Assembly (NCBI GenBank): GCA_051294905.1
Contig: CM119371.1
Span: 35,712,001 to 35,776,000 of the forward strand
From: Botryllus schlosseri
Taxonomy: Eukaryota
DNA length: 64,000 bases
Reading direction: 5' to 3'
In this document: positions 48,697 through 61,446 of the stretch, in pieces
How positions within the stretch are numbered: position 1 is the first letter of the stretch
How the letters are laid out: each line of letters begins with the position of its first letter
The notes under the pieces: model-generated
Told to the model about the DNA's origin: nothing
What the model saw: only the letters and a program-made list of their open reading frames with translations
Databases searched by the model: none
Position numbers and translations under genes: made by a program

Positions 48697-48702
48697 TTTA
48701 TT
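48697..48702 (-). terminator. Poly(A) signal AATAAA overlapping the stop of the 48698-49015 ORF
   Basis: Minus strand CAA TAA A; ends the MCP-protease block. Confidence 0.6.
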
Positions 48703-49015
48703 GAGCTATGAAACGACCATCACAAAACGCTTGAAATAGGATTATATTACCAACAACAATGGCCTTGCCCTTGAAATCAATGACCAAGCACGATTTATAA
48801 AGCACACGATAATGTTCGTCTTTACAGACAATGATATTACGCGATGGGTATGTAACACAATCTTCAATTGGTTTCACTACAATTCTATTATCATAATGGA
48901 AAAGTATACACGTGTAGGGAATGGTAATTGATCTCACGTTAGGTAATACAATCATTTCCTCGTAATTACGACACGACTCAAACTGAGTAGCAACAGAAAT
49001 TCTTGCCATGGTCAT
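48698..49015 (-). CDS. Hypothetical protein, 105 aa, beta-rich
   Basis: Start overlaps the upstream stop (ATGA); stop contains AATAAA. Confidence 0.65.
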   Translation of the reverse strand: MTMARISVATQFESCRNYEEMIVLPNVRSITIPYTCILFHYDNRIVVKPIEDCVTYPSRNIIVCKDEHYRVLYKSCLVIDFKGKAIVVGNIILFQAFCDGRFIAQ

Positions 49016-49128
49016 GCTTCACTAGCTTGTTCACGTTCTTGACAGCAACATGATACCCATTCCAGTATACAACAAATAGTAAGCAGTACGATGAACACGA
49101 CAGCTAAGATATCATCGACATCTTCCAT
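49012..49128 (-). CDS. Small single-pass membrane protein, 38 aa (not in ORF track)
   Basis: MEDVDDILAVVFIVLLTICCILEWVSCCCQEREQASEA; ATG directly follows the upstream TAA and its TGA overlaps the next ATG. Confidence 0.7.
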   Translation of the reverse strand: MEDVDDILAVVFIVLLTICCILEWVSCCCQEREQASEA

Positions 49129-49446
49129 TTATATACGCGATCTAGTCAGAGATTCCCAGATTTTTAGTCTACGAAAAACAACAAATTCTTCACTGATTTG
49201 CTGTACAATTCTATGTTTCGATAACACGTCTATGTACATACAATGATTAGGAAAGCGTACAGGCAACCAATCAGTTCCAATGAATAATGTAATATCTCGG
49301 TCATGCGGATAAATACGTATATGAAAGCTATCAGATGAAAGTCTGTGAATGCGTTCAGGATTCATTACAATGATTTTTTCTCTGATTTTCAGTCGAATCT
49401 TCTCATCTCCAAAGTACTGTATGACAGTGAAGCTATTTGCTCGCAT
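49129..49446 (-). CDS. Hypothetical protein, 105 aa
   Basis: Overlaps the protease 3' end by 14 nt and abuts the next ATG; no family recognised. Confidence 0.65.
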   Translation of the reverse strand: MRANSFTVIQYFGDEKIRLKIREKIIVMNPERIHRLSSDSFHIRIYPHDRDITLFIGTDWLPVRFPNHCMYIDVLSKHRIVQQISEEFVVFRRLKIWESLTRSRI

Positions 49447-49885
49447 TTCGTTTTAATCTTTGAACAAAGTCCCAGACTATACTATCGTTGTGTTTCTTAT
49501 CTTTTCCGAAGTGGTCTAAATAAGACAGCGTGTTCATACCATCACTGCGGCAGCTAAGGAATGAAATTGCGTGTGCTCCGCAAGCCTCTGAACGTTTGTG
49601 TTGTAATGGTTTGATCGAACTGGTATACTTTTCAGGTTCTAGGAAACAGGGTATTTCGTTTCTGAACGGAGTTATGCCGAAGCTGTCGTGAAAATGAGTT
49701 CCATATTCATCAGCGTAGATACATACCCAGTGACTTCCTGGTTCGTCGGCCTCGTCATAATTAATGATTAATGAGTAGGGAGGTTTCGGTCGCCGAGGAA
49801 GTCGATCAATAGGAAAATTTCCTAGATAATGTCGTTTGGTGGAATCGTAACTATACAATATTTCATCTATTTCTAGTCCGTTCAT
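49433..49885 (-). CDS. PRO: Adenain-like cysteine maturation protease, about 150 aa
   Basis: GSHWVC (His), HDSFG (Asp), QHKRSEACG (Gln/Cys); probable start 49885 forms ATGA with the MCP stop. Confidence 0.93.
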   Translation of the reverse strand: MNGLEIDEILYSYDSTKRHYLGNFPIDRLPRRPKPPYSLIINYDEADEPGSHWVCIYADEYGTHFHDSFGITPFRNEIPCFLEPEKYTSSIKPLQHKRSEACGAHAISFLSCRSDGMNTLSYLDHFGKDKKHNDSIVWDFVQRLKRNASK

Positions 49886-59669: not shown

Positions 59670-59715
59670 AGATACTAGTATCTGAAAAATATCAAGACAA
59701 TAGTCAGTACATATA

Positions 59716-60120
59716 TTAGAAATTGAATCCATATTTCAAGCGCAGTTTACATTTAATTACACCGTATAGAAACACAAACTTAATTTTTTCAAGACGCTGA
59801 ATCTCAACAATGCAAGCATTCGAGTCACTAGATAGTTTTTCAATGTCTTTCATGGTGTTTTTAACTATGTTTAGAAAATTTTTCGAGTAGTCTTGGTCAA
59901 ATACTTCCATCGAAACAAGTCGATTCCACATAGCTTCCATCTTCAAATCGTCGTCAACTAGACCTTCGATCAAAGACATAGTGTCTTGACGCGAGCGCTT
60001 TCGGCTTTCATTTTGACTCTGATATATCTTGTTCATGTCTTTTCTCGGAGCCTGCATCGTTACACTTTGATGAGGCGCGTTCATATCTAACAAGTCACTT
60101 ATGTCAATGAAGTTATCCAT
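59716..60120 (-). CDS. Hypothetical helical protein, 134 aa
   Basis: ATG preceded by a strong splice acceptor; basic RKRSR motif; no family recognised. Confidence 0.7.
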   Translation of the reverse strand: MDNFIDISDLLDMNAPHQSVTMQAPRKDMNKIYQSQNESRKRSRQDTMSLIEGLVDDDLKMEAMWNRLVSMEVFDQDYSKNFLNIVKNTMKDIEKLSSDSNACIVEIQRLEKIKFVFLYGVIKCKLRLKYGFNF

Positions 60121-60203
60121 ACTGAGCTGCGAACAAAAAAGATTGAATTAGCACTGTATCAACATGCATCAAAAATATTAGTACTAAATCAACATGCATC
60201 AAA

Positions 60204-60209
60204 TTTATT
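60204..60209 (-). terminator. Poly(A) signal AATAAA overlapping the stop of the helicase-like gene
   Basis: Minus strand TGT GAA TAA A; also lies inside a putative donor GTGAAT. Confidence 0.55.
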
Positions 60210-61446
60210 CACATTCTTCGTAAGTACGTTTGATATCACGAAATTTAGCATAGAAACTCATTGCATGCATATCAGTTTCTACTTCATTACCGTTATTGCG
60301 AGTTTTTACTGAAGTACGATTCAATAACGAATACAGAACAGTATCACGACCATGACTATTCAATGCTTCTACTGACGGATCGTAAAGTTTATTTCCAAAT
60401 TTTACGACAACAGTTTTTCCAGCAAATGATAGTGGGTACTTTTCAGTCATGATCTCAGAGCCATTTTTCACATCACAAAACATCCAGAAAGAGGCAGGCT
60501 TAATCAAGCCATAATCGCAGTTCACAGCTGTGCGTTGTACTGTCATAATAGTCTCTAGGAGAGCAGCATTATTCATGAAAATACTAGCGCAATTCGGAAA
60601 CATACAAATAGATTTGTCGGCATCGTAATATCTGAATGCATCCAACTTTTCCAAAGTACTCAATACATAGTTTGCTACATCACTAGTCAAAAACATATGA
60701 GTCAGCATTTCTTTACCAGAGTGACAATCACCCTCAAACCAAAAATTCGGGGCTATATCTCTGCGGCGAACATAACCTTCAAAGATAGAAACAACGAGCG
60801 CTGCCCTGAGGAAATTAAGACTACGCATTTGTCCGGCATACCAAATTTCGGTGATATTTTCTTCAAGCGCAGAATACAAAAACACAGCATTTTGAATCGT
60901 AGGTTGAGGACTTAACTTCTCGATCACTTTATTGAATTTTCGACTTCTCATATAATCACTTGCCAGAATTTCACTCGTACTGGATTCGCGCAACACTCGA
61001 ATAACAGAAATCACAGAGCGCCTACGAGCACTAACATTTGTTGAATCAGACGAGACACTTTGATCACTAGCTAACGATCTCATATTCGATATCATTGGCG
61101 AATCATCATCAGACAGGTCACTTAACATCGCTGTTTCTGTATCTTCTCGGGTGGACTGCTTGTTCGAAGGCGCTACACCAAAATGACCATTTTTCATGAT
61201 TTTGCGTATCTCTGCACGAGCCGCTTCCGTACGACGAATTTTGATTGGAGGCTCTTGACTATTCTCATCCGTACGTCGAATTTTAACAAAAGGTTGAGTG
61301 TTTTGCCAATCAAAACCTTCGCTGATTGATTTAGCTTCACTGCTATCATCACCGGTGATGTCAATCACGTCGACTTGAGTCGTACTACTTTCGTTATCTA
61401 CTGCGACTTGTTCCATCTCGTCATTTACGACTTGTTCAGTATTCAT
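60205..61446 (-). CDS. About 413-aa protein: acidic disordered N-terminus plus degenerate SF3-helicase-like domain
   Basis: FLRAALVVSIFEGYVRR...NFWFEGDCHSGKEML resembles E1/NS1 Walker A context; expected Walker B lacks acidic residues (ICMFPN); SIM-like VDVIDIT. First ATG at 61446. The ORF is certain, the function tentative. Confidence 0.6.
   Translation of the reverse strand: MNTEQVVNDEMEQVAVDNESSTTQVDVIDITGDDSSEAKSISEGFDWQNTQPFVKIRRTDENSQEPPIKIRRTEAARAEIRKIMKNGHFGVAPSNKQSTREDTETAMLSDLSDDDSPMISNMRSLASDQSVSSDSTNVSARRRSVISVIRVLRESSTSEILASDYMRSRKFNKVIEKLSPQPTIQNAVFLYSALEENITEIWYAGQMRSLNFLRAALVVSIFEGYVRRRDIAPNFWFEGDCHSGKEMLTHMFLTSDVANYVLSTLEKLDAFRYYDADKSICMFPNCASIFMNNAALLETIMTVQRTAVNCDYGLIKPASFWMFCDVKNGSEIMTEKYPLSFAGKTVVVKFGNKLYDPSVEALNSHGRDTVLYSLLNRTSVKTRNNGNEVETDMHAMSFYAKFRDIKRTYEECE

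Follow-up and report, generated by a model that had tools for sequence, protein, structure and literature searches.

Stop-codon signals and tightly joined genes suggest few multi-gene transcription units in a Polinton of Botryllus schlosseri

Polinton/Maverick elements and adintoviruses carry pPolB, rve integrase, ATPase, protease and major and minor capsid genes, arrayed so closely that they almost overlap, as described in the accessible portions of the reports on them (Starrett et al., PMC8502044, 10.1101/697771; Barreat and Katzourakis, PMC8097293). In these portions, the gene cluster is loosely termed 'virion protein operons' (Starrett et al., PMC8502044, 10.1101/697771), and the core genes are reported to be intronless (PMC8502044, 10.1101/697771, PMC8097293). 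The same portions name neither promoters nor poly(A) sites nor a mechanism of translation, whereas candidates are mapped here in one element; no Polinton transcript map was found in the literature searched. In other systems, the adenovirus major late unit serves many structural genes with few poly(A) sites, internal-site read-through and a polymerase reached via splicing, according to the excerpted account (PMC9499273). Green-algal polycistronic mRNAs hold several ORFs per polymerase II transcript, with leaky scanning favoured in the sections available (PMC7896298). Termination-reinitiation is known from caliciviruses and influenza B, and in motif-free form from pneumoviruses, victoriviruses, hypoviruses and SART1 (PMC5972666).

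The window, i.e., the whole stretch of 64,000 nt that was analysed, contains a minus-strand gene block that is the core of a Polinton/Maverick (Table 1). An AGTAGT end, which we take to be a Polinton terminus, marks the left side at 46643..46648 (plus strand), with the right terminus lying outside the window. The PolB ORF is homologous to the PolB of relatives and polymerase motifs of the protein-primed family B type were read by eye, while the packaging ATPase (PF04665) and the retroviral-like integrase (PF00665 and PF00385) were recognised by Pfam matches above cut-off. A Pfam search gave no match for either the PolB ORF or the 413-aa helicase-like gene, the Atlas feature matches of the latter including PF01057/PF00519 clusters. 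By sequence comparison the block also appears to encode an MCP, minor capsid proteins and an adenain-like protease: the MCP match P0004 is named major capsid protein (4525 relatives at E<=1e-30), two further genes are presumably those of minor capsid proteins, and the protease is assumed to be one from its position and visible His/Asp/Cys motifs. A PDB sequence search returned nothing meaningful, and an Rfam search yielded three tRNAs only. Eight related lineages, with 25-45% protein identity among them, were used for comparison; scans for relatives returned none from a phage collection and none from viral contigs save L005, an unrelated AT-rich contig. As a homolog query the first pX-like exon gave no match, and relatives were instead taken from the loci.

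Table 1. Genes and candidate signals of the Polinton block (positions in the window)
Feature	Position	Strand	Basis or reading
SF3-helicase-like gene, 413 aa (parvovirus NS1/papillomavirus E1-like)	60205..61446	-	Atlas feature matches 0.90-0.92
134-aa ORF	59716..60120	-	ORF list
PolB, 1287-aa ORF	55803..59669	-	34-37% identity over 849-1338 aa to PolB of L019, L020
A32-like packaging ATPase	55178..55798	-	PF04665, E 1.6e-9
pX-like (QKGGFL) basic protein gene	54738..55142	-	two exons, 55142-54857 and 54802-54738
153-aa ORF	54284..54745	-	ORF list
Integrase (rve + chromodomain)	53280..54293	-	PF00665, E 2e-13; PF00385, E 6e-10
70-aa hydrophobic ORF; ATGA overlap with next gene	53120..53332	-	kept in relatives; 39-52% identity matches
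Minor-capsid-like gene 1; ATGA overlap	52302..53123	-	homology to same-position gene in relatives
Minor-capsid-like gene 2	51556..52305	-	homology to relatives
QRGHG protein gene	51210..51578	-	36-47% identity matches in relatives
Major capsid protein (MCP); ATGA overlap with protease	49882..51159	-	29% identity to P0004
Adenain-like protease	49433..49885	-	27% identity to L004 counterpart
Three small ORFs (105, 38, 105 aa); joints -14, 0, -4 nt	48698..49446	-	ORF list
AATAAA over helicase-like stop	60204..60209	-	probable poly(A) signal
AATAAA over PolB stop	55799..55804	-	best-supported poly(A) signal
AATAAA over ATPase stop	55177..55182	-	read as TATA-like promoter, possibly also poly(A) signal
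ATTAAA over QRGHG stop	51209..51214	-	doubtful unit boundary
AATAAA over last stop	48697..48702	-	probable end of capsid block
TATAAAAG in PolB 3' end, 58 nt before ATPase ATG	55849..55856	-	candidate ATPase promoter
AATAAATA over ATPase stop, initiator-like TCATTCG 33 nt on	55145..55182	-	TATA-like promoter of pX-like gene
TATAAATC and TCACACT, 31 nt apart, in minor-capsid 3' end	51593..51628	-	candidate QRGHG promoter; counterpart kept in relatives
Strong 3' splice acceptor, 6 nt before 134-aa ATG	60127..60150	-	top score among 722 AG
Strong 3' splice acceptor with branch-like TACTGAC, 12 nt before PolB ATG	59682..59712	-	
Strong 3' splice acceptor, 14 nt before MCP ATG	51174..51200	-	weaker in 7 relatives
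Intron, 54 nt, GT..CTAAC..AG	54803..54856	-	four relatives have both parts contiguous

The block is best explained as coding sequence that also carries the transcription map of the Polinton, to be read by host RNA polymerase II, a reading in which, taken whole, our confidence is about evenly balanced. The motifs, the joints, the conservation of joints and RNA piles near two ends are observed. Several stop codons probably double as RNA end signal or promoter box, with few long RNAs carrying several genes each. Multi-gene units are likely, and the map of five units proposed in the original prediction is partly wrong; from the same features we infer translational coupling as well as exact cleavage sites, promoter use, splicing, reinitiation and stoichiometry.

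The five-unit map was based on hexamers overlapping the TAA of exactly five genes, and these are indeed present at all five stops and at none of the others among the 16 ORF stops. The chance rate per TAA is 0.077 (14/183 non-stop TAA in the block; 119/1526 in window positions 1-36000), and five of nine TAA stops carry a hexamer (p = 2.5e-4 to 2.8e-4). The hexamers lie at 4/5 gapped joints compared with 0/10 overlapping or abutting ones (Fisher p = 0.004 with the pX-like gene spliced, 0.011 unspliced). Twelve further AWTAAA occur within the coding sequence of the block against 15.1 +- 3.0 from codon shuffles, and late genes overall hold 20 internal AATAAA against 22.8 expected. Since there is no depletion, long RNAs must pass internal hexamers; a depletion was seen in L004 (0 vs 3.9, p 0.013). 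The five stop hexamers could not be told apart from the twelve within coding sequence by downstream U/GU content. Of the joints said to link genes within units, all four ATGA overlaps, the TAA-ATG at 49129/49128 and the short overlaps (-10, -53, -23, -14) are present, and the end of the pX-like gene overlaps the start of the next gene by 8 nt. Joining by overlap fails, however, for the 134-aa and PolB genes, between which lies a 46-nt gap with a strong splice acceptor inside it.

Single-cell RNA reads were used to locate ends; of the sequencing runs listed as containing the stretch, none is on record as RNA. Run X15 gave ~108 sense reads over the block, of which ~78 fall in the two bins with the PolB and helicase-like stops and none in the bin past PolB. 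The pile at the PolB end is clear, the depth falling from 8.17 in bin 55637-56073 to 0 in 55200-55636, and that at the helicase-like end (bin 60007-60443) is less sharp, with a depth of 6 at 60171, 33 nt past the hexamer. Internal priming was discounted as the cause of the piles, there being no 11-A-in-16 tract in 55450-55850 or 59700-60250. The late block, capsid genes included, was nearly silent (~4 sense reads), with ~2 sense reads at the 48697 hexamer, and the 54-nt intron was not seen in RNA. Among the reads listed there were no junction reads, poly(A) tails or sharp ends, nor was a splice junction seen at the 134-aa acceptor at this low coverage. As 93% of the 120 reads of run X17 continue into sequence that does not match, this run served solely to show where coverage ends. 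Run X21 gave 0 reads, and run X1 was rejected as RNA, its even coverage of introns and gaps looking like DNA. The reads may stem from other copies of the family.

In related lineages, the last gene of the capsid block is followed by a hexamer after 0, 0, 13, 29, 71, 90 or 214 nt (combined p 5e-6). Together with the two RNA piles and the scarcity of signals at inner genes, this bears out the expectation of few 3' ends for many genes. Stop-embedded hexamers as such are not general (4/49 joints in relatives).

Three of four relatives have TATAA in the ATPase stop together with an initiator, the ATG following 32-37 nt on; L020 has an ATGA joint at this position. In this element, AATAAATA may possibly serve as a poly(A) signal besides its promoter role. 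In motif tests picked post hoc, after the data were seen, TATAA ends in the stop codon at 6/6 of the relatives' 30-55 nt gaps versus 4/43 other joints (p 1.5e-5), or versus 4/18 outside such gaps when only TAA-stop joints are counted (p 0.0016). By the same kind of post hoc test, TATAA..YCATT with a spacing of 30 is present in 6 lineages at 54-69 nt upstream of the QRGHG ATG, spelled with codon choices that are rare (the joint chance is 0.0005-0.096 per lineage); further loci have TATAA before QRGHG in 4/4 cases and the whole motif in 2/4, and L004 is without the minor-capsid TATA. TATAAAAG is a possible ATPase promoter that may be a codon by-product, and it failed a stricter TATA+initiator scan. 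Most inner genes lack a signal of their own that resembles a promoter or an acceptor.

Of 64 joints, 43 fall within -8..+12 nt and 1 at 13-29. The MCP-to-protease distance in seven elements is -4, +2, +2, +1, -1, -1 and -1, i.e., the joint is held at -4..+2 nt through five different spellings, a pattern that would favour translational coupling. The QRGHG/MCP joint lies at -17..+7 nt in relatives, inside a conserved promoter-QRGHG-MCP-protease run. In the lineages compared, QRGHG-MCP-protease is the conserved unit, which makes the 51209 boundary doubtful.

Coupling of the calicivirus or influenza B type, as originally envisaged, was not borne out: UGGGA motif 1 (TURBS) occurs at 3/36 tight joints against a 7.5% background and at 0/9 MCP 3' ends, and no 5-mer was prominent at tight joints after allowing for many tests, nor any shared motif. 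The block does resemble these systems in having stop and start within a few bases, adjacent stop and restart codons being found at 28/64 joints (-4..+2 nt), and in having an MCP gene followed by a protease gene. In caliciviruses, the major capsid gene is likewise followed by the gene of a low-copy virion protein. Unlike the known cases, which comprise RNA viruses and a retrotransposon with one such joint, this is a nuclear dsDNA element, and L004 has a chain of up to seven tight joints. Leaky scanning was also considered and rejected, as a raw scarcity of ATG in short genes vanished on codon resampling. Out-of-frame ATG seen/expected were 12/12.7 for pX, 25/21.1 for QRGHG and 6/9.9 (p 0.05) for the 70-aa class; unlike in green-algal polycistrons, upstream ORFs are here long or without loss of out-of-frame ATG.

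Splicing was assessed with a rule-based acceptor score. Of 722 AG sites, the four with the highest scores include three that lie 6-14 nt upstream of the 134-aa, PolB and MCP starts, so that 3/16 window genes have strong acceptors, with one more at the 4% level. These acceptors, and an intron in the pX-like gene that homology supports, set the element apart from Polintons as the consulted portions of the literature describe them, the near-overlapping gene array being the same. Such signals would fit an adenovirus-like scheme, which we regard as possible but somewhat doubtful, in which promoters and poly(A) sites are those proposed here, inner genes are reached from a common leader through weaker 3' acceptors of their own, each RNA is functionally monocistronic and tight joints reflect compaction. 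Adenovirus late genes use such a scheme, in the excerpted account, and share with the present proposal few poly(A) sites, internal-site read-through and a spliced polymerase start (PMC9499273). Inner genes are preceded by acceptors that score slightly above background (mean quantile 0.26-0.45), which leaves room for splicing; for the 153-aa class the scores are high in 5/5 lineages (0.10, combined p 0.009), although this signal may derive from upstream T-rich hydrophobic codons. Against this scheme, protease starts are at background (mean quantile 0.45 in 8 elements), and splicing does not require stop and start to be kept so close in five spellings. Unlike in adenovirus, neither a common leader nor a strong donor upstream of the acceptors was found, several internal TATA motifs take the place of one major late promoter, and most inner genes abut the upstream stop without a strong acceptor.

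That all five hexamers are used 3' ends, exactly as first mapped, is unlikely. Their enrichment at stops and gapped joints speaks for it, as do the RNA piles at the PolB and helicase-like ends, and AATAAATA could act as both signals. Nevertheless, relatives carry TATAA rather than AATAAA at the ATPase stop, so that the hexamer at 55177 looks TATA-like, and 51209 falls inside the conserved run; in L012 the same ATTAAA arises from an Asp codon plus TAA, with the next ATG only 2 nt off. We consider it quite unlikely that each gene has its own promoter, mostly TATA-less and inside the upstream gene, yielding nested RNAs with shared 3' ends of which the first ORF alone is translated, as known for the nested RNAs of herpesviruses and baculoviruses. 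Internal TATA+initiator motifs before some genes and the few 3' ends would agree with this, but in none of the elements scanned did this motif lie ahead of the MCP, protease, integrase or 153-aa class genes, and the pile-up of joints at -4..+2 is left unexplained. Operons resolved by spliced-leader trans-splicing, which in nematodes and tunicates show a poly(A) signal and then an unpaired acceptor, are very improbable here: two joints have a hexamer and then an acceptor within 35-77 nt (60204/60127, 51209/51174) and lack a strong upstream donor, but no leader-like loose end occurred among 9 listed of 16 at low coverage, and cleavage between overlapping genes would cut a reading frame.

Under the transcription map that we prefer, the helicase-like, 134-aa and PolB genes would form the expressed early part, with RNA ending at the AATAAA in the stop of the helicase-like or PolB gene, and with splicing to the acceptors just 5' of their ATGs giving access to the 134-aa and PolB starts. 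In the late part, few TATA+initiator promoters (ATPase stop; minor-capsid 3' end) would start nested RNAs that span several genes and most likely end at the 48697 AATAAA. For inner genes without promoter or acceptor, above all the protease behind MCP, ribosomes would stop and restart within a few bases, without the calicivirus motif, which would yield little protease per capsid protein. The MCP of this element may have gained a 50-nt gap and its own acceptor.

The analysis yields exact and testable positions for candidate starts and ends, for one intron and for a conserved, putatively coupled joint between MCP and protease. Regulatory motifs kept in coding sequence across lineages so far diverged argue for a still-running early/late programme. 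More tentatively, animal Polintons may share a conserved expression code in which TATA or poly(A) signals in stop codons mark few units, and TURBS-free stop-restart through chains of up to seven full-length genes sets capsid-to-protease ratios. If true, a nuclear eukaryotic dsDNA element would possess translational coupling of the bacterial style, and in this lineage spliceosomal introns in addition. Restart chains, if confirmed, would add a new case of multi-gene translation in eukaryotes, one that could serve co-expression.

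From 46643 to past its end at 64000, the window carries a Polinton/Maverick element of an animal genome, with an AGTAGT left end at 46643 and genes for an integrase with a chromodomain, an A32-like ATPase, a 1287-aa polymerase, two minor-capsid-like proteins, the major capsid protein (MCP) and a protease. The SF3 helicase likeness of the first gene comes from Atlas features alone (0.90-0.92), and the labels minor capsid, protease, pX-like and initiator motif are ones that we assume for this element. Bcl-2, ubiquitin-conjugating E2, BIR (IAP) and Death-domain genes form a set of cell-death regulators within the element. 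The minus-strand gene block is flanked by tRNA-Pro and tRNA-Leu; in the related L001/L003/L004 family, a tRNA-Met (L004 6084-6156) lies ~28 nt past the protease stop and its hexamer. These tRNA genes are possible boundary elements. Upstream of the block, three 81-95-nt repeats (61905-62129) could be enhancer or origin elements, and the segment 61568-61694 is not the same in another copy. A nested inverted-repeat cluster rich in GACTCGAGTC (36437-46118), probably host DNA transposons, adjoins the left end.

Cell-death regulator and tRNA genes in the window
Feature	Positions	Strand
Bcl-2	46891-47409	+
Ubiquitin-conjugating E2	47911-48381	+
BIR (IAP)	62194-62580	+
Death-domain	63705-63989	-
tRNA-Ala	47770-47842	
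tRNA-Pro	48572-48643	
tRNA-Leu	61740-61823	

As originally predicted, AATAAA or ATTAAA overlaps five TAA stops of the block, i.e., those at 60204 (helicase-like), 55799 (PolB), 55177 (ATPase), 51209 (QRGHG, the small protein gene just 5' of MCP) and 48697 (last ORF), with the other 11 stops lacking one; the gene overlaps were likewise present as described. The hexamer was found at 5/9 TAA stops, compared with 7.7% of TAA that are not real stops (14/183 in the block, 119/1526 in the flank; p ~3e-4). The five are located at 4/5 gapped joints (stop to next ATG) and at the block end, and at 0/10 tight, i.e., overlapping or abutting, joints. Given that 12 further hexamers lie inside genes of the block, close to the chance number (15.1 +- 3.0 expected), a hexamer alone is no mark of an RNA end; the five stop hexamers and the twelve intragenic ones could not be told apart by their downstream U/GU content. 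Stop-embedded hexamers are not general among the relatives, being present at only 4/49 of their joints; three of these four come from L012, which is AT-rich and whose spacers there are A-rich and 2-11 nt long. In seven loci, the distance from the last capsid-block gene to a following hexamer is 0, 0, 13, 29, 71, 90 and 214 nt (combined p 5e-6 relative to the hexamer density of each locus; L009 and L019, which are broken, were excluded). A 30-nt tandem duplication (60147-60206) directly follows the helicase-like hexamer. The 134-aa stop overlaps AATATA, a weak poly(A) variant, at 59712-59717, with ~6 sense reads in the bin 59570-60006.

Reads were mapped from 4/24 listed runs. Single-cell run X15 yielded 121 reads, all second mates, split by bin depths into ~108 sense and 7 antisense; ~78 of the sense reads (72%) were concentrated in 2/30 bins. 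These bins contain the PolB stop (55637-56073; depth 8.17, with 0 in the adjacent downstream and 0.73 in the upstream bin) and the helicase-like stop (60007-60443; depth 7.98, adjacent bins 1.24 and 0.79). Such piles are expected at RNA ends from 3'-tag libraries, the chemistry of this library not being on record, and no A-rich tract accounts for them. Among the X15 reads listed, neither a sharp end nor a tail nor a splice joint appeared. At 60171, 33 nt beyond the helicase-like hexamer, depth remains at 6, which makes that end less certain. Coverage in bulk run X17 likewise ends at the PolB end, but 93% of its reads continue into unlike sequence. Only ~4 sense reads fell in 48645-55636, which holds the three other putative ends, at 55177, 51209 and 48697. 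Run X21 gave zero reads, run X1 resembles DNA, and the reads may come from other copies of the element.

The relatives comprised four loci of one family, represented by L004, and 16 further loci. The joint counts cover the window plus eight lineages (L004, L009, L011, L012, L013, L016, L019 and L020), omitting family duplicates (L001-L003, L017), loci that were too short (L006-L008, L014) or unrelated (L005), gaps of at least 100 nt and breaks within degraded genes; L010, L015, L018 and L021 were reserved as held-out checks. Among 64 joints, 43 lay within -8 to +12 nt and 28 within -4 to +2 nt; 14 were ATGA, nine lay at 30-55 nt and only one at 13-29 nt. Eight genes of L004 form a chain whose joints are ATGA in five cases, an 8-nt overlap in one and a 2-nt gap in one; the sole hexamer of the run is in the protease stop. 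MCP-protease distances in seven elements were -4, +2, +2, +1, -1, -1 and -1 (in L019 the protease frame is interrupted farther along, and in L012 another gene intervenes). Because the spelling of this joint differs between elements, its closeness is maintained by selection, not copied letter for letter. L006-L021 are sixteen Polinton capsid-motif matches in contigs filed as bacterial assemblies, several of marine-animal symbionts, and are probably wrongly binned host DNA. Frames interrupted at L019 5244-5664 and L012 10133-10378 and 9076-10092, and also in L009, L010 and L021, were taken as degraded copies.

At tight joints, ribosomes would stop and then restart at the next gene, a reading that we favour because alternatives were eliminated and the stop-start distance is kept. 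Nested splicing, the main rival for the inner genes, we consider less likely. By a rule-based acceptor score, three of the top four among 722 AG sites in the window lie 6, 12 and 14 nt upstream of the 134-aa, PolB and MCP starts, respectively; no strong donor was found upstream of them, and scores before relatives' inner genes are only mildly raised, the 153-aa class being the exception. Polinton core genes are reported to be intronless in PMC8097293 and 10.1101/2022.07.12.499685, whereas a 54-nt GT..CTAAC..AG segment (54856-54803) interrupts the pX-like gene here, the two parts of which lie in a single frame in L010, L011, L017 and L020; adintovirus nucleotide maps could bear on introns. The MCP acceptor at 51174 shares its frame with a donor-like site at 51466 within the QRGHG gene, a one-in-three chance, making an N-terminally extended capsid protein conceivable. 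Just past the helicase-like ATG, weak phase-0 GT sites (61431-61401) match the frame of both the 134-aa and the PolB acceptor, and a short first exon shared by both is possible. Leaky scanning failed its test. The parallel with caliciviruses did not hold for their UGGGA motif, which occurs near tight joints at background level (3/36); UGGGA-free reinitiation is described in PMC5972666 for pneumoviruses, victoriviruses, hypoviruses and SART1. The whole expression model, in which TATA-plus-initiator promoters would start nested RNAs with few poly(A) ends, early genes would be spliced and inner genes translated by stop-restart, has in our judgement an even chance of being right.

In motif tests devised post hoc, once the motifs had been noticed, TATAA ending in a stop codon was present at 6/6 gaps of 30-55 nt in relatives versus 4/43 other joints. 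It occurs at the ATPase stop of L011, L012 and L019 (gaps 32, 37 and 37), followed after 30-33 nt by an initiator-like motif; in L020 this joint is of the ATGA type. The window ATPase stop reads AATAAATA, with a gap of 35 and TCATTCG 33 nt further. Given this pairing in relatives and window, the 55177 hexamer is best read as a putative TATA-like box, a second use being possible. Six lineages carry a second motif, TATAA..YCATT with a spacing of 30, within the 3' end of the minor-capsid gene and 54-69 nt upstream of the QRGHG ATG. It uses the same synonymous codons throughout while those nearby vary, with a joint chance of 0.0005-0.096 per lineage. Held-out loci carried TATAA before QRGHG in 4/4 cases and the full motif in 2/4; the window counterpart is a similar pair displaced downstream (51628, 51597), and the motif is absent from the L004 minor-capsid gene. 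A scan upstream of MCP, protease, integrase and the 153-aa class turned up no TATA-plus-initiator pair. Towards its 3' end (53358-53388), ahead of the 70-aa gene, the integrase gene contains TATAAAGA and TCAGT, 30 nt apart; at this joint in L019, TATAAAGA lies within the integrase stop.

Nearly overlapping Polinton ORF arrays have been called "virion protein operons", with no mechanism given in the accessible text of PMC8502044 and 10.1101/697771, and Maverick transcription went undetected in the corresponding part of 10.1101/2022.07.12.499685. Excerpts of PMC9499273 and PMC7896298 cover the adenovirus late map and algal polycistrons, respectively, and those of PMC10748475, PMC11296320 and PMC12220804 hold nothing on Polinton gene expression. 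A literature search covering mainly freely accessible papers, and not the original 2006-2007 descriptions, turned up no transcript map, no promoter motif and no study of reinitiation for Polintons.

The QRGHG-to-MCP joint spans -17 to +7 nt in relatives. Because it is tight there, the conserved unit is QRGHG-MCP-protease, and ATTAAA at 51209 is doubtful as a boundary. Of the predicted map of five operon-like units, multi-gene units with few 3' ends remain likely, and two of the five boundaries were probably misread. The stronger result, as judged from sequence comparison, is the conserved placement of putative promoter boxes in stop codons and coding sequence, alongside the fixed MCP-protease joint.
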